A stretch of 64,000 nt of DNA, taken from the NCBI GenBank assembly GCA_964505265.1, contig CAZDGN010000006.1, positions 24,214 to 88,213 of the forward strand, given 5' to 3'. The notes under the pieces are model-generated. The model saw nothing but the letters and a program-made list of their open reading frames with translations, made no database searches and had not been told where the DNA came from. The translations under genes were made by a program, and so were the position numbers. The stretch is from an uncultured Rickettsia sp. (lineage in GTDB: Bacteria; Pseudomonadota; Alphaproteobacteria; Rickettsiales; UBA1997). Numbering within the stretch: position 1 is the first letter of the stretch; each line of letters opens with the position of its first letter. Of this stretch, positions 10,438 to 16,326 are shown piece after piece.

Positions 10438-10714
10438 AAAAATTATATTTTAATATTTGTTTTTTTTAAATTTTTTTAGCTTATTTTTTATAAGAATTAT
10501 AAGCAATTTTTTTAATTAAATTTTTACTTATTTTTCAATTTTATTCAAAAAAAATTCAAAAAAACCCAAAAAAAACCTATTTTTTTAAAAAAGTTAATTT
10601 TTTTTGTGGACAAATAAAAAAATTTTTTTATTGTTCCGCCCCTCTTATTATTTTTTTTCAAAAATTTTGTATAAGTTTTTTGTTTTTTATTAATTTATAT
10701 TTTACTAAAAAGAA

Positions 10715-12058
10715 ATGGAACCAGAACAAGAATATGACCGAAGAGTCTCTTCAAAAATTTATTATCTTCATAATAGCAATAAAAAAGCTAATAAAAATAA
10801 TAAACCAGATAACCACTCCATCAAACCAAGTGAAGATTTATCTTCGACCAATAATCTTGTTGCGATAGATGATTATATCAAATTAAACTCACCTACAATT
10901 CCAGTATATTGTATAAGACCAAATTCAATAAAAAAAGCTGTGAATTTTTTTCAAAAAGAATTTGTTTCTAATAATAATCCAACAGAAATTTTATATTCTG
11001 TAAAAAGCAATCCAGATCGTCAAGTTTTAAGGCACTTGTTTAATAATGGCATCAAGCATTTTGATGTCGCTTCCCTTTCAGAAATAAATTTAATTGACGA
11101 GTTATTTGGCAATAAAAATGTCAAGATGTATTTTATGCATCCAATTAAATCTCCAGAATCAATTGCCGACGCTTATTTCAATTATGGAATAAAAGATTTT
11201 TCTTTAGATTCTTTTGACGAGCTAGACAAAATTCTTAAAGCTACAAAAAATGCAAAAGATCTTGGCTTACACATTAGATTATCAATTCCAAATTCGCATT
11301 CGGCGATTGATCTATCTGGAAAATTTGGCATTTTACCATCTGACTCAGCTGGTCTCTTGAGAAAAGCTAGAGCCATCGCCAAAACCCTTGGTATCTGTTT
11401 CCATGTTGGCTCTCAATGTATGGATCCAGTTGAATATAGAAATGCAATCATAATTACCAAAGAAGTCCTCGAGGATTCTGAAGTAAATATTGATGTGCTT
11501 GATATTGGAGGCGGTTTTCCATCAATTTACCCAACAATGACTCCGCCAAATTTAACTCATTATTTTGATGAAATTTTTGATGCAATTGAACATCTAAATT
11601 TATCTAATAACTGCAAAATATGGTGCGAACCCGGAAGAGCATTAGTAGCCGAATCTGGCTCACTAATAGTTAGAGTTGAGGGCAGAAAAAATCATATGCT
11701 TTACATTAATGATGGAACCTATGGTGGATTGTTTGATGCTGGCTATCCCGGCTTTATTTACCATACCAAGGCTATTAGAATTAAAAATGAATCAAAATTA
11801 TCTTCGGAAAAAATTGCCTTTGGATTTTATGGTCCAACTTGCGACTCACTTGATACTATGAAGGGTCCGTTTTATTTACCAGAAAATATTCAGGCTGGCG
11901 ATTACATTGAAATTGCTCAACTCGGAGCTTATTCTCGAAGCATTAGAACTGAATTTAATGGTTTTAATAAAAACTTACAAATCGAGGTAAAAGACCTTCC
12001 AATTGAGTCAATGTATCCCGATATTCAAAATCAAAATATAAAAAAAATTAATTCATAA
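10715..12058 (+). CDS. Ornithine decarboxylase (fold-type III PLP, alanine-racemase fold)
   Basis: YSVKSNP, FHVGSQ, DIGGGF, EPGR, GPTCDSLD, GAYS. N-terminal extension, so the start is uncertain. Confidence 0.88.
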   Translation: MEPEQEYDRRVSSKIYYLHNSNKKANKNNKPDNHSIKPSEDLSSTNNLVAIDDYIKLNSPTIPVYCIRPNSIKKAVNFFQKEFVSNNNPTEILYSVKSNPDRQVLRHLFNNGIKHFDVASLSEINLIDELFGNKNVKMYFMHPIKSPESIADAYFNYGIKDFSLDSFDELDKILKATKNAKDLGLHIRLSIPNSHSAIDLSGKFGILPSDSAGLLRKARAIAKTLGICFHVGSQCMDPVEYRNAIIITKEVLEDSEVNIDVLDIGGGFPSIYPTMTPPNLTHYFDEIFDAIEHLNLSNNCKIWCEPGRALVAESGSLIVRVEGRKNHMLYINDGTYGGLFDAGYPGFIYHTKAIRIKNESKLSSEKIAFGFYGPTCDSLDTMKGPFYLPENIQAGDYIEIAQLGAYSRSIRTEFNGFNKNLQIEVKDLPIESMYPDIQNQNIKKINS

Positions 12059-12061
12059 TTT

Positions 12062-13096
12062 ATGGTAAATAAAAAAATTTCAAAAAAAGATTTACTTAAA
12101 AAACAAGTAGAGCATATCGACATTACCTCCTTTGATGCAAGACCAATCATATCACAAATGGACAAAATGTCATTTACCTCAAGAGATTTGGCAAGAGCTA
12201 CTGAAATTTTTAATATGATGTTAGCTGACAAATCATGTTCGGTTATTTTAACTCTTGCTGGTTCAACTTCGGCGGGCGGATGTATGAAGCTTTATGCCGA
12301 TATGATTAAATACAATATGGTCGATGCCATAGTGGCAACCGGAGCCTCAATTGTTGATATGGATTTTTTTGAAGCCTTAGGTTTTAAACATTACCAAGGT
12401 ACTCCTTTCATTGATGACAAGTTCTTGCGCGATAATTACATCGATAGAATTTACGACACCTATATCGATGAAGAAGACTTGCAAAAATGTGATCATGCTA
12501 TTTTTGAAATTGCCAATTCACTTAAAGCAAAACCATATTCATCGAGAGAATTTATTGCCGAAATGGGCAAATTTTTGCAAAAAAAAGCCAAAAAGAAAGA
12601 TTCATTAATTCAGCTTGCTTATGAAAATAATGTACCGATTTTTTGCCCAGCCTTTACCGATTCATCTGCGGGATTCGGTTTGGTTTTACATCAAGTCAAA
12701 AATCCAAAATCACATATTACTATCGACTCAATTCGTGATTTCAAAGAATTAACTGATATTAAAATTAAAGCTGGAACCACTGGATTGCTAATGATTGGTG
12801 GAGGAGTTCCAAAGAATTTCGTTCAAGATACCGTAGTTTGTGCTGAAATTTTAGGTAAGGAAGTTGATATGCATAAATATGCAATTCAAATCACAGTAGC
12901 TGACCAAAGAGATGGAGCTTGCTCATCTTCAACTCTAAAAGAGGCTTGCTCTTGGGGTAAGGTAGATGTAGCTTTTGAACAAATGGTTTATGCCGAAGCT
13001 ACTTCAGTTATTCCATTACTAGCATCATGTGCATATCACGATGGCAAATGGAAAAAAAGAGTTAGAAAAAATTTTAGCAAATTATTTAAGGGATAG
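12062..13096 (+). CDS. Deoxyhypusine-synthase-like protein (probable homospermidine synthase)
   Basis: VDAIVATGA, CPAFTDSSAG, GGGVPKN, DGACSSSTLKEACSWGK. Starts 3 bp after the decarboxylase. Confidence 0.88.
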   Translation: MVNKKISKKDLLKKQVEHIDITSFDARPIISQMDKMSFTSRDLARATEIFNMMLADKSCSVILTLAGSTSAGGCMKLYADMIKYNMVDAIVATGASIVDMDFFEALGFKHYQGTPFIDDKFLRDNYIDRIYDTYIDEEDLQKCDHAIFEIANSLKAKPYSSREFIAEMGKFLQKKAKKKDSLIQLAYENNVPIFCPAFTDSSAGFGLVLHQVKNPKSHITIDSIRDFKELTDIKIKAGTTGLLMIGGGVPKNFVQDTVVCAEILGKEVDMHKYAIQITVADQRDGACSSSTLKEACSWGKVDVAFEQMVYAEATSVIPLLASCAYHDGKWKKRVRKNFSKLFKG

Positions 13097-13236: not shown

Positions 13237-13737
13237 TTGATGTTAGAACAGAAATCAATTTTTAAAATCTCGTTTATTTATTTTTTTGCCGCAATATTAA
13301 CGGCGATGAATCTTACCAACATAAGAGTTGCCGGAATTAACAATTTGTGGCCTCTTTTTGACCTAATGGCAATTTTTTACTTTGGAATCTTTAAAAATCG
13401 CTTCGGCTTGGCATTTATTTTTTTTCTTGGAATTTGGAATGATGCCATCAACGGCAATCCTTTGGGTCTTACTTCTCTAAGCTATATTATGCTTATAAAA
13501 ATATTTTCAATTATCAATCAAAGGATTTTATCTAAGGAAAATTTCATTCATATCTGGAAACAATTTGTGGTTTTTTTAATTCTGTTTTTAATCTTTAAGC
13601 TTGTGCTTTTTGTGATAATTTCTGGAAATTTTATTTCAATTAAAATTATGCTGTTTCAATTTGTAATTTCAATTTTTGTTTACATTCCAATCCATGTATT
13701 TTTTGATTATTTAAGCAAAAAATTATTAGAAGAATAA
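13237..13737 (+). CDS. mreD: Rod shape-determining protein MreD
   Basis: Highly hydrophobic 166 aa with GIWNDAINGNPLGLTSL, directly upstream of PBP2. TTG start. Confidence 0.75.
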   Translation: MMLEQKSIFKISFIYFFAAILTAMNLTNIRVAGINNLWPLFDLMAIFYFGIFKNRFGLAFIFFLGIWNDAINGNPLGLTSLSYIMLIKIFSIINQRILSKENFIHIWKQFVVFLILFLIFKLVLFVIISGNFISIKIMLFQFVISIFVYIPIHVFFDYLSKKLLEE

Positions 13738-13738
13738 T

Positions 13739-15544
13739 ATGCTTCGAGATATTAGAAAAAACAAAATTTTCAATAGACGTGCTATGATACTTGGAGTCAC
13801 CCAATCGGCTTTGTCAGGAATTTTAGTGCTTCGCCTTGGATATTTGCAAATCTGGAAATATGACGAATATAAAAATCAATCGGATAGTAATCGCATTAAA
13901 CCCGTAATCAATCCAGCGGGCAGGGGAACAGTTTTTGACCGATATGGTCTCCCATTAACCAGAAATGAAAGCAATTTTAGGCTTTTAATTTATCTTGATA
14001 AAAAAAATAATATAGAAAAATCTTTGGATAAAATATGTCAAATCCTTGAAACCAGCGAAGAAACTAGAAATCTTTTTTACGCCAAAGTTAAAAATGCCAA
14101 ACGCAAAAATGTTATTTCACTAATCGACAATCTTGGTTGGGACGACCTCGCCAGAATTGAAACAAACTTTCATTCATTACCAGGCGTTTCAATTGAAAGT
14201 GGCATCATCAGAAAATATCCCTACCCTGCAGAAACCTCTCATTTCCTTGGATATGTCTCATTGCCAGCTGAAAAAGAAATTGATGAAAACGAACAAAACC
14301 TATTTATGCATCCGGATTTTCGTATTGGAAAAAGCGGAATCGAAAAAACTTTTGACACAGTTTTGCGGGGTAAATATGGAGTAAAATATGTTGAGGTGAA
14401 TGTTCACGAGGTTCCACTACGAACCTTGTCAATTAAACAACCATCCGAAGGCTCTAGAATAAATTTAACTATTGATTTTGGTTTACAAAAATTTATTACC
14501 GAACGCATCAAAAACGATGTTGCATCGGTTGTAGTTATGGATGTCAAAACTGGAGAAATCCTCGGTTATTGTTCCTCACCGACTTTTGATCCAAATAATT
14601 TTGTAGAAGGCGTATCTAAAGATTATTGGAAACAATTAAATGAAGATCCAAAAAAACCATTAAATAATAAGCCCATCTCGGCACTTTACCCACCAGGGTC
14701 AACTTTTAAACTTATGGTTGCCCTAGCGGCACTTGAAACAGGTTTCAATCCAGCCACAAGATTTTATTGCAACGGCTCTTATCAGCTCGGCAAAAGAACT
14801 TTTCATTGCTGGCAAGAAAAAGGGCATGGCTCTCAAGATTTAATTGGGGCAATTAAACATTCTTGCAATGTTTATTTTTATAACTTGGCAAGTCAAATTG
14901 GCCACGAACGATTCAATGATGTAGCCAGAAGATTTGGCTTTGGTGAAAAATTTGATATTAGTCTGTACGGATCAAAATCTGGACTTCTTCCAAGTGACGA
15001 GTGGAAGAAAAAAACCTTCAACCAGCCTTGGGTAAAGGGCGACACTTTAAACACCGCAATCGGTCAAGGAAATGTTCTTGGCACTCCTCTTCAACTTGCA
15101 GTTGTTGCCTCAAGAATTGCAAATGGCGGAATTCCTATCAAGCCATATCTTGTAAGAAATAGCAATATTTTTAAACAATATGATGCTTTAAAAAATGAGC
15201 CAATAGTTGATAATAAATTTTTGAAATTAATACAAGAGGGCATGAAAAAAGTAGTAAATGAAGCAGGGGGAACTGCCTTTGGCAAAAAGATTTTAACTCC
15301 TGGATATGAAATGGCCGGAAAAACTGGAACATCACAAGTTATTTCTAAAAGAGAAAAGGAAATGTCCAAAGCCGAAATTGAAAATAACGCTAACCATGCA
15401 ATTTTTATTGGCTATGCCCCAATTCACGACCCAAAATATGCGATTTCAGTTGTTGTTGAGCACGGAAAAAGTGGCTCAATGGCGGCGGCACCAATTGCCA
15501 AAGATGTCTTGATGCAAGCACAGGGTCTTAAAATAAATTTATAA
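13739..15544 (+). CDS. mrdA: Penicillin-binding protein 2
   Basis: RGTVFDR, YPPGSTFK (SxxK), SCN, KTGT. Confidence 0.95.
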   Translation: MLRDIRKNKIFNRRAMILGVTQSALSGILVLRLGYLQIWKYDEYKNQSDSNRIKPVINPAGRGTVFDRYGLPLTRNESNFRLLIYLDKKNNIEKSLDKICQILETSEETRNLFYAKVKNAKRKNVISLIDNLGWDDLARIETNFHSLPGVSIESGIIRKYPYPAETSHFLGYVSLPAEKEIDENEQNLFMHPDFRIGKSGIEKTFDTVLRGKYGVKYVEVNVHEVPLRTLSIKQPSEGSRINLTIDFGLQKFITERIKNDVASVVVMDVKTGEILGYCSSPTFDPNNFVEGVSKDYWKQLNEDPKKPLNNKPISALYPPGSTFKLMVALAALETGFNPATRFYCNGSYQLGKRTFHCWQEKGHGSQDLIGAIKHSCNVYFYNLASQIGHERFNDVARRFGFGEKFDISLYGSKSGLLPSDEWKKKTFNQPWVKGDTLNTAIGQGNVLGTPLQLAVVASRIANGGIPIKPYLVRNSNIFKQYDALKNEPIVDNKFLKLIQEGMKKVVNEAGGTAFGKKILTPGYEMAGKTGTSQVISKREKEMSKAEIENNANHAIFIGYAPIHDPKYAISVVVEHGKSGSMAAAPIAKDVLMQAQGLKINL

Positions 15545-15549
15545 AAAAT

Positions 15550-16326
15550 ATGTTTATAAAAATCCCTTTTAAAAATCAAAAAATTGAATTTTGGGAAATA
15601 AAAAACAATGCAAAACTTCTCGTAAAAAAAATCTTTTTTAAGAACGATATTTCAAGAAAAATTATAAGTTATTTGATTTATTTTTACTTATTTTTTGTTT
15701 ATAAAACTTGCAGAAAAAAATTTATCGGCTTTGAAAATCAGACTAATTTTATTGAAAAAAATTCAATAATTTTTTCATTTTGGCATAATCGTTTAATGAT
15801 GATTCCATTTTTATCAAGAAAGATTAAGAAAAAAATTAATAATTTCAACCTAATGACCCTAGCTTCAAGACATGGTGACGGCAGAATAGTGGGTGAGGTT
15901 ATGGAAAAATTTGGCCTAATCTCAGTGCTTGGATCAAGCAAAGACAAAAGAGGGTCGCACAAGGGTATTGAATATTCAAATTTAAAAAAAATAATTAATG
16001 GCTTAAAAAATGGCTACTGCCTAGGCATTACCCCAGATGGTCCTCGCGGACCCAATCAAGAGATTAACGGCGAAATTATTAATATCGCCAAATTAACTGG
16101 CGCTTCATTAATAAATGTTTCTTATTCTTGTTCAAGATTTATTGTAATCAAAAAAAGCTGGGATAAATTTAAAATTCCCCTTCCATTTTCACGCTTATGT
16201 TTTGTGGTTTCAGATAATATATATAAGGTCGATAAAAATATGAGTGAATCGGATTTAGAATCTTTAAAATTTCAAATTCGTGATGATTTAAATCACACTC
16301 AAAATCTCGCAGACTCTTCCTTATAA
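15550..16326 (+). CDS. DUF374 / lysophospholipid acyltransferase-family protein
   Basis: FWHNR, SRHGDG, ITPDGPRGP, WDKFKIPLPF. Confidence 0.8.
   Translation: MFIKIPFKNQKIEFWEIKNNAKLLVKKIFFKNDISRKIISYLIYFYLFFVYKTCRKKFIGFENQTNFIEKNSIIFSFWHNRLMMIPFLSRKIKKKINNFNLMTLASRHGDGRIVGEVMEKFGLISVLGSSKDKRGSHKGIEYSNLKKIINGLKNGYCLGITPDGPRGPNQEINGEIINIAKLTGASLINVSYSCSRFIVIKKSWDKFKIPLPFSRLCFVVSDNIYKVDKNMSESDLESLKFQIRDDLNHTQNLADSSL

Follow-up and report, generated by a model that had tools for sequence, protein, structure and literature searches.

Introduction

A route from arginine to homospermidine that runs through agmatine and N1,N9-bis(guanidino)homospermidine (G44G, also called diagmatine or caldomycin) has been described in work published from 2023 to 2026 (PMC13625781, PMC9992855, PMC10981699). 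All bacterial SpeY enzymes tested convert two agmatines to G44G, and a ureohydrolase has to be present for homospermidine to be obtained (PMC13625781; PMC10981699). When produced in E. coli lacking speB, SpeY from Ca. Fonsibacter ubiquis and from five other species yielded G44G. All SpeB homologues tested were able to hydrolyse G44G, and both SpeY-associated ureohydrolases that were tested (2/2) were G44G-specific (PMC13625781). In the older literature, putrescine was given as the substrate from which SpeY forms homospermidine (quoted in PMC9992855). The Thermus enzyme CdmS carries Phe204 and Leu286 in place of Asp243 and Asp316 of deoxyhypusine synthase (DHS), and keeps Lys299 (PMC10981699).

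In alpha-Proteobacteria and Coxiella, a survey states, SpeY is found together with homologues of ornithine decarboxylase (ODC) that have the alanine-racemase (AR) fold (PMC13625781). [quoted passage not shown] The ODC/ADC-speY-speB cluster of R. salexigens and the speB-ODC/ADC-hss cluster of Rhodopila globiformis both contain such alphaproteobacterial arginine-specific ODC homologues (PMC13625781).

We analysed a decarboxylase gene (product P0001) and the DHS-like gene that follows it (speY, product P0002) in a 64,000-nucleotide stretch of DNA, hereafter the window. An earlier note on this DNA had read the pair as an ornithine decarboxylase and a DHS-like enzyme that together lead in two steps from ornithine through putrescine to homospermidine. 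We consider it probable, at roughly 85%, that the pair encodes steps one and two of the agmatine-dependent (SpeY) pathway to homospermidine and that the third enzyme is a ureohydrolase encoded on another contig, C2. The gene pair and the route are already known in the literature; with the present case, a Rickettsiales-like freshwater lineage would join the alphaproteobacteria whose homospermidine comes from the agmatine/SpeY route.

Results

The decarboxylase and speY genes form a conserved pair

The features discussed are collected in Table 1. The TAA stop codon of the decarboxylase gene (12056-12058) is separated by three thymines from the ATG of speY (12062), so that the 3-bp spacing reported earlier was found again, and the two genes are likely to be co-transcribed. 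The region upstream of the pair is far poorer in GC than the window as a whole (31.5%). Given that the gene on the far side of this gap lies on the opposite strand and is divergent, the promoter of the pair is presumably located within the 277 bp. Sigma-70-like hexamers were not enriched there (19, compared with 16.8 +/- 4.3 in shuffled sequences), and therefore no specific promoter was assigned. No terminator-like hairpin was seen in the 140-bp gap between the 3' end of speY and mreD, and the terminator scan likewise did not exceed its shuffled controls.

Table 1. Positions of the genes and intervals discussed (window coordinates unless a contig is given)
Feature	Position	Strand	Details
Intergenic region 5' of the pair	10438..10714	.	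277 bp, 12.6% GC, flanked by divergent genes
P0001 decarboxylase gene	10715..12058	+	447 aa; Pfam Orn_Arg_deC_N 9.6e-36, Orn_DAP_Arg_deC 2.5e-11
P0001 N-terminal extension	10715..10860	+	about 48 aa, Asn/Lys/Ser-rich, precedes the fold
Spacer between P0001 stop and speY start	12059..12061	+	3 nt, ttt
P0002 (SpeY) gene	12062..13096	+	344 aa; Pfam DS 1.4e-95
Agmatinase-like ureohydrolase gene	G000:C2:76145-77113		another contig than speY; TIGR01230 (agmatinase equivalog) 192.7, cut-off 174.3

In 73 of 80 related loci, speY is directly preceded by a decarboxylase homologue. We also searched a sample of 301 alphaproteobacterial genomes, 17 of which, counting our own, carry SpeY; the same decarboxylase-speY order was present in 15 of the other 16 (one unpublished genome, G240, is included in these tallies, and no individual claim depends on it). 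Because so many loci and genomes share the order, the pairing is far beyond chance.

P0001 is probably an arginine decarboxylase

P0001 is a PLP decarboxylase of the AR fold and of the ODC lineage (PF02784 and PF00278), with an intact catalytic set consisting of K97 (the PLP lysine), H230, G265-G267, E305, R308, D333, C376-D377, and Y406. Its N-terminal extension is missing from the Pelagibacterales enzymes of 394-396 aa; tblastn alignments with the closest relatives begin at residue 1, and ten of the eleven other members of its 90% cluster also have 447 aa, the remaining one being a 133-aa fragment.

One could envisage P0001 as a genuine ornithine decarboxylase and P0002 as an enzyme that condenses two putrescines, or putrescine and another donor, directly to homospermidine with no third enzyme. 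In keeping with this, the best relatives of P0001 among solved structures are lysine/ornithine and ornithine decarboxylases, and D333 and D377 are equivalent to D332 and D361 of ODC, the residues that bind the distal amine, so that both aspartates are retained. In the chlorovirus arginine decarboxylase (ADC), an Asp has changed to Glu. This substitution was considered as a guide to specificity, but it is absent from P0001 and was not informative. The positions that differ between the clades include R68, M141, N332, and D341, none of which has a known role.

The phylogenetic placement points the other way. In a maximum-likelihood tree (a quick one with SH-aLRT support only, in which the composition of many rows is biased), P0001 groups with its nearest kin as the sister of the Pelagibacterales decarboxylases (SH-aLRT 94), one row of which, L027, carries the source name Ca. 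Fonsibacter sp. (a cluster look-up at genus level). P0001 falls inside a clade of 27 rows (support 98), 21 of them labelled speY-linked, and a sister clade is linked to Sacchrp_dh and agmatinase genes. Another clade, of 375-431-aa proteins about 30% identical to P0001, is far off on long branches; the four members that were looked up have 375-377 aa and bear the source name ornithine decarboxylase. The identity of P0001 to the assayed Pelagibacterales decarboxylases is about 50%.

Since the characterised orthologues (3/3 of the assayed speY-associated ODC homologues) are arginine-only and P0001 shares their clade, P0001 is probably an arginine decarboxylase, that is, an ODC neofunctionalised to ADC. 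The first gene had been called an ornithine decarboxylase in the earlier note, and related records label decarboxylases of this type 'ornithine decarboxylase' or 'type III PLP-dependent enzyme'; under either label, the enzyme should be read as a probable arginine decarboxylase. If the enzyme indeed prefers arginine, as we consider very likely by analogy, the two-step ornithine route fails.

Polyamine and arginine genes in the genome

Profile searches were carried out over the genome, which is 99% complete. The only AR-fold decarboxylases were P0001 and LysA, and neither an AAT-fold decarboxylase nor a pyruvoyl ADC was matched; with no other arginine decarboxylase found, P0001 is the only possible source of agmatine. 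There was likewise no match for SpeD (PF02675), for agmatine deiminase, or for Sacchrp_dh_C (PF16653; HSS/CASDH), and none of the triamine synthase partners that would use putrescine (HSS, SpeE with SpeD, or CASDH/CASDC) was found. A SpeE-like match (PF01564) on contig C24 was rejected as part of a spermidine pathway: what matches is an incomplete methyltransferase-fold domain of a 692-aa ORF, and it scored 54-60 bits, compared with SpeE cut-offs of about 250-260.

Matches above cut-off were obtained for argB, ornithine carbamoyltransferase, and argH, and the genome provides for the synthesis of ornithine as well as arginine. Ornithine synthesis, which the ornithine route needs, is not missing; with both amino acids synthesised, however, substrate supply cannot discriminate between an ADC and an ODC, and we treat it as neutral.

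P0002 resembles SpeY rather than DHS

P0002 scored 584.1 bits against NF002699 (cut-off 500), covering positions 1-337 of the 338 in the profile, but stayed below the cut-off of every DHS equivalog model (NF002006, 298.6 against 434; TIGR00321, 232.7 against 304.25; NF002630, 231.8 against 364). It is 73-76% identical to Pelagibacteraceae SpeY, and the members of its 90% cluster bear the corresponding name at NCBI. When aligned to human DHS, P0002 has F205 at Asp243, C287 at Asp316, and N252 at His288, and it keeps E294, W298, and K300, which are equivalent to Glu323, Trp327, and Lys329; K300, within an SWGK motif, corresponds to the catalytic lysine. The six sites checked were invariant across 82 SpeY sequences. 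Judged from this alignment, P0002 carries the published SpeY/CdmS pocket signature, and the view that it acts on small molecules is supported. The loss of both DHS aspartates that bind the amine ends is a further argument against a condensation of putrescines.

A DHS-like enzyme could in principle act on protein, and the earlier note had raised aminobutylation of EF-P. In this alternative, P0002 would place an aminobutyl or guanidinobutyl group on the lysine at the tip of EF-P, much as eIF5A is hypusinated. The EF-P encoded in the genome has a tip loop, KPGKGGA, with Lys33, and the catalytic lysine is kept in P0002. No EpmA was found above cut-off in the genome (the best match, 30.6 bits compared with 286.9, lies in an ORF of 592 aa, probably that of a tRNA synthetase), and an EarP search gave no match, although the controls of the same search were silent too. 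Lys-type EF-P without EpmA is common among alphaproteobacteria that lack SpeY. The genome contains no IF5A substrate: IF-5A models stayed below cut-off, and only EF-P was found (TIGR00038, 214 bits). Against protein modification stand the replacement of the spermidine-binding Asp243 and Asp316, the scores of P0002 under every DHS equivalog cut-off, and the failure to find a spermidine pathway that would provide the aminobutyl donor (no SpeD or CASDH, and a SpeE-like domain far below cut-off); moreover, the small-molecule activity of close orthologues fully explains the conserved neighbours.

A putative third enzyme is encoded on another contig

Because SpeY yields homospermidine only together with a ureohydrolase, the SpeY pathway needs a third enzyme, which here is encoded elsewhere in the genome. 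The agmatinase-like ureohydrolase on C2 is the sole arginase-family gene in the genome and has the Mn-ligand motifs GGEH (133-136), DAHAD (159-163), and DID (243-245). Among the 80 related loci, 38 have a gene directly downstream of speY with which it shares 52-62% identity; in a 39th locus, the gene at this place matches it at only 31%. By these identities, the C2 ureohydrolase is an ortholog of the speY-adjacent ureohydrolases, and the retention of such a gene argues against a route from ornithine that would dispense with it.

The 3' end of the C2 ureohydrolase gene overlaps an AstE/AspA-family gene by 35 nt. We considered this neighbour as a fourth member of the pathway and rejected it, as none of the 80 speY loci contained a match; nor is it associated with SpeY, occurring in 3 of the 17 genomes with SpeY, compared with 33 of all 301 alphaproteobacteria.

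The overlap, and the lack of linkage between the ureohydrolase and speY in this lineage, could mean that the ureohydrolase serves another pathway together with its AstE/AspA-like neighbour, and that the pathway ends at, or also yields, a guanidino-polyamine (G44G or N-aminobutylagmatine). There is a precedent in Thermus, where G44G builds up as the natural product 'caldomycin' (PMC10981699). However, the lack of any other arginase-family gene, the identity to speY-adjacent enzymes, the hydrolysis of G44G by all tested SpeB homologues (PMC13625781), and the absence of a SpeY association of the AstE-like gene all argue against this possibility, which we regard as improbable.

Discussion

The analysis suggests the following pathway. 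P0001 would decarboxylate L-arginine to agmatine. P0002 would then employ NAD and, like deoxyhypusine synthase, pass through a lysine-imine intermediate, here on K300, to move the 4-guanidinobutyl group of one agmatine onto the primary amine of another, with G44G as the product. Finally, the C2 ureohydrolase would strip two ureas from G44G to give sym-homospermidine. What we observed are the identities and families of the genes, their residue signatures, the conserved synteny, the position in the tree, and the gene content of the genome; the arginine specificity of P0001, the formation of G44G by P0002, and its hydrolysis by the C2 ureohydrolase are predicted by analogy with the tested enzymes. 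Given the biochemistry of the orthologs, the pocket residues, and the synteny, the pair very probably belongs to a homospermidine-making polyamine module, as had been proposed, with homospermidine as the end product. For annotation, it is of value to record that the pathway also requires an unlinked agmatinase-like gene.

Some observations count against this route. The C2 ureohydrolase is unlinked to speY and overlaps the AstE/AspA-family gene, and might have another role; P0001 retains the distal-amine aspartates of ODC and shares no more than about 50% identity with the assayed Pelagibacterales enzymes.

The ornithine route has on its side the structural relatives and aspartates of P0001, the synthesis of ornithine, and the older view of SpeY. 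Nevertheless, the tested SpeY enzymes all give G44G from agmatine and require the ureohydrolase (PMC13625781), and together with the arginine-only clade, the altered P0002 pocket, and the retained ureohydrolase this makes the two-step pathway through putrescine unlikely. The modification of EF-P, whether as the function of P0002 or as an addition of butyl-amine or butyl-guanidine to Lys33 besides G44G synthesis, is very improbable in either form, gaining no support beyond the bare tip lysine; if true, it would be a bacterial counterpart of hypusination in a Rickettsiales-like lineage that lacks EpmA.

Type IV secretion genes and a candidate effector elsewhere in the window suggest host association. 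If the organism is host-associated, it would produce a triamine of its own from arginine by the agmatine-dependent pathway, bypassing putrescine.

The locus can be compared with four described systems. Eukaryotic/archaeal DHS (human DHS, PDB 1RLZ/6XXJ; P0002 match 4e-27) shares with P0002 the fold and the NAD-dependent lysine-imine chemistry. The equivalents of K329, E323, and W327 are kept in P0002, whereas Asp243, Asp316, and His288 are replaced by Phe, Cys, and Asn, and the bacterium has no IF5A substrate. Thermus uses a canonical SpeA-type ADC and not an ODC-derived enzyme. CdmS/SpeY of Thermus thermophilus (Kobayashi et al. 2024, PMC10981699) is a DHS-fold enzyme of agmatine homocoupling, as P0002 would be: the catalytic Lys and the Glu323 equivalent are kept, neither aspartate remains, and the first site is Phe in CdmS and P0002 alike, but Leu286 of CdmS corresponds to Cys287 in P0002. 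The R. salexigens decarboxylase (444 aa) is similar in length to P0001, and the R. globiformis type fits the sister clade linked to Sacchrp_dh and agmatinase; the places of these two species in the tree are deduced from gene context.

The closest counterpart is the Pelagibacterales system (described in 2023, PMC9992855, and by Li et al. 2026, PMC13625781), in which a decarboxylase of the ODC lineage is also encoded immediately upstream of speY. The SpeY proteins are 73-76% and the decarboxylases about 50% identical, the decarboxylases form sister clades, and the P. ubique-type ureohydrolase is orthologous to that on C2 (52-62% identity). Unlike in that system, the ureohydrolase gene here is not directly downstream of speY, the agmatine deiminase/NCPAH of Fonsibacter was not found in the present genome, P0001 carries the additional N-terminal tail of about 48 aa, and the host is a Rickettsiales-like freshwater lineage rather than SAR11.

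The gene pair and its surroundings

Two neighboring genes had been proposed here in the earlier note, and this was borne out: P0001, a decarboxylase gene of the ornithine decarboxylase (ODC) lineage, and P0002, a deoxyhypusine synthase (DHS)-like gene, are same-strand open reading frames with 3 nt between the P0001 stop and the P0002 start. The window has a GC content of about 31%, and the genome that holds it comprises 1.53 Mb in 30 contigs and is 99% complete. The pair had also been credited with its own AT-rich promoter region; the gap upstream is indeed AT-rich, but a separate promoter is suggested by the divergent gene arrangement, and in consensus scans around the pair neither promoter nor terminator signals exceeded those in shuffled sequence. 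No terminator was predicted in the gap between speY (P0002) and mreD, and mreC was not seen directly upstream of mreD.

Features of the gene pair and of other genes considered (plain numbers, window positions; L, fetched loci; C, contigs of the genome of the window)
Feature	Coordinates	Strand	Description
P0001	10715-12058	+	447 aa; both Pfam domains of alanine-racemase-fold PLP decarboxylases
P0001 N-terminal extension	10715-10860		Asn/Lys/Ser-rich, about 48 aa
P0002	12062-13096	+	344 aa; full-length DHS family member
P0002 residue 252	about 12815-12817		Asn
Upstream gap			277 bp, 12.6% GC; common to P0001 and a divergent gene
Downstream gap			140 bp, AT-rich; followed by mreD and the PBP2 gene
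Genes after speY	13237-16326		mreD, PBP2-type transpeptidase gene, DUF374 gene
Ureohydrolase	C2:76145-77113		322 aa; arginase family
Ureohydrolase and AstE/AspA-family gene	C2:76145-78149; L001:1366-3370		35-nt overlap; AstE/AspA-family product 356 aa
EF-P	C3:9719-10291; L085:1489-2061		tip loop KPGK33GGA
692-aa ORF	C24; L086:554-2632		methyltransferase domain at residues about 273-398

P0002 is a SpeY/CdmS protein

P0002 scored below the cut-off of every deoxyhypusine synthase equivalog, and its family is SpeY/CdmS. Proteins of freshwater "Rickettsiales bacterium" MAGs share 92% identity with it, and Pelagibacteraceae SpeY 73-76%. From two agmatines, the Thermus enzyme forms N1,N9-bis(guanidino)homospermidine (G44G) (Kobayashi et al. 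2024, PMC10981699), as do the SpeY proteins of six phylogenetically diverse bacteria, among them Ca. Fonsibacter ubiquis, a freshwater SAR11 relative; G44G is not made by eukaryotic DHS or bacterial homospermidine synthase (HSS), and SpeY gives homospermidine only when an agmatinase-type ureohydrolase is present (Li et al. 2026, PMC13625781).

In the alignment with human DHS, K300, E294 and W298 of P0002 correspond to the retained Lys329, Glu323 and Trp327, while Phe205 and Cys287 occupy the positions of Asp243 and Asp316, and Asn252 that of His288. None of the six sites varies among 82 SpeY sequences of related loci. Thermus CdmS has been reported to differ from human DHS in this way, lacking both aspartates and having Phe at the first site (PMC10981699). 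The Asn found in 82/82 SpeY sequences aligns with a catalytic-site His, and no comment on it was found in the cited SpeY literature.

The earlier note's alternative, in which P0002 would modify the tip lysine of EF-P, we consider extremely improbable. The single EF-P does carry Lys33 at its tip, and nothing in the genome reached the EpmA cut-off; the EarP search gave no match, but its controls were also silent. On these grounds some unknown lysine modification of EF-P is a formal possibility, but nothing connects it with SpeY. A role for SpeY is opposed by the failure of P0002 in all DHS equivalogs, the loss of the spermidine-binding aspartates of DHS, and a genome in which no spermidine pathway was found; moreover, a small-molecule pathway fully accounts for the conserved neighbors of P0002.

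P0001 as a probable arginine decarboxylase

The best solved relatives of P0001 are lysine/ornithine and ornithine decarboxylases, and a chlorovirus arginine decarboxylase (ADC) and eukaryotic ODC reach similar scores. P0001 has the complete catalytic set of ODC, with counterparts of D332, C360 and D361 among its members. The substrate is not settled by residues alone; most of the weight falls on context and phylogeny. [quoted passage not shown] Given these three species and the context and phylogeny of P0001, the best reading from sequence is that it descends from ODC and decarboxylates arginine. The assayed enzymes are only about 50% identical to it. The N-terminal extension, lacking in the 394-396-aa Pelagibacterales ADCs, is present in its entirety in each of the ten full-length relatives within the 90% cluster of P0001.

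In 73 of the 80 loci recovered with P0002, the gene immediately upstream of speY encodes a P0001 homologue. Among 301 evenly sampled genomes of alphaproteobacteria (the tallies include one unpublished genome, G240, on which no claim depends), SpeY is present in 17; each of the 16 besides this one has a P0001-like gene (43-53% identity), directly upstream of speY in 15 and unlinked in G137. The sample also supplied fifty further loci, two of them from G137 and 48 from genomes lacking SpeY; with these, a maximum-likelihood tree was built for 73 decarboxylases, with the LysA of this genome as root. In it, the group of P0001 and its nearest relatives is sister to Pelagibacterales enzymes (SH-aLRT 94), one of which (L027) is called Ca. 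Fonsibacter sp. by its sources, and both lie inside a 27-row clade (support 98) with 21 rows labelled speY-linked. Genes of its sister clade (support 98) are linked to agmatinase genes and to genes of the Sacchrp_dh family (HSS-like), as is described for the Rhodopila globiformis enzyme, which is specific for arginine (PMC13625781). A distant, separate clade holds 375-431-aa proteins about 30% identical to P0001, whose genes adjoin speE or Sacchrp_dh genes; the four members looked up have 375-377 aa and the source name ornithine decarboxylase, and the clade agrees with what is described for the Brucella enzyme, which is specific for ornithine, 377 aa long and 33% identical to the ADC type (PMC13625781).

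Four loci from genomes without SpeY (L094, L096, L097 and L098, from G069, G178, G104 and G167) hold an ADC-clade decarboxylase and, no more than about 3 kb away, a second decarboxylase with about 30% identity to P0001, with a Sacchrp_dh-family gene between them in L096-L098 and an adjoining agmatinase-like gene in L098. Such polyamine clusters with two decarboxylase types may be worth a look.

A predicted route to homospermidine

LysA (462 bits, TIGR01048) is the only other alanine-racemase-fold decarboxylase of the genome, in which no AAT-fold decarboxylase, pyruvoyl arginine decarboxylase, SpeD, agmatine deiminase or Sacchrp_dh_C protein (HSS/CASDH) was matched. The only Spermine_synth match is a partial, spermidine-synthase-like domain in the 692-aa ORF. 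It scores 54-60 bits, far below the SpeE cut-offs of about 250-260, and the ORF probably does not encode a spermidine synthase. Exactly one arginase-family gene is present; its product scores above the agmatinase equivalog cut-off and has the Mn-ligand motifs. In 38 of the 80 loci, among them the three-gene clusters of Pelagibacteraceae, the gene that immediately follows speY encodes a protein 52-62% identical to this product; in a 39th, the match at that place is only 31%. From this inventory, P0001 is the only possible agmatine source for SpeY, the ureohydrolase is the only candidate to act on G44G, and no enzyme making a triamine from putrescine was found. A coherent reading of these genes is that P0001 would convert arginine to agmatine, SpeY would form G44G, and the candidate ureohydrolase would release homospermidine. 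The earlier note had the end product right, but not the route, which it had drawn through ornithine and putrescine. Since argB, ornithine carbamoyltransferase and argH are encoded, ornithine and arginine are both available, and their supply does not discriminate between the routes.

The ureohydrolase gene is not linked to speY and overlaps an AstE/AspA-family gene (succinylglutamate desuccinylase/aspartoacylase-like; best NCBIfam match DoeB, far below cut-off). An association of the latter with SpeY was ruled out, as it had no matches in the 80 speY loci and occurs in 3/17 SpeY genomes versus 33/301 overall.

Comparison with known clusters

Alanine-racemase-fold ODC homologues co-occur with SpeY in alpha-Proteobacteria and some Coxiella, and are likely ADCs (PMC13625781). 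The present locus is orthologous to the ODC/ADC-SpeY clusters described in Pelagibacterales and in other alphaproteobacteria (PMC9992855, PMC13625781). Unlike in the published clusters, the ureohydrolase is unlinked, the deiminase branch is absent, the decarboxylase carries an N-terminal tail kept in close relatives, and the host, judging from its nearest relatives, belongs to a freshwater lineage that is Rickettsiales-like. These differences are minor, and the gene pair is real but ordinary.
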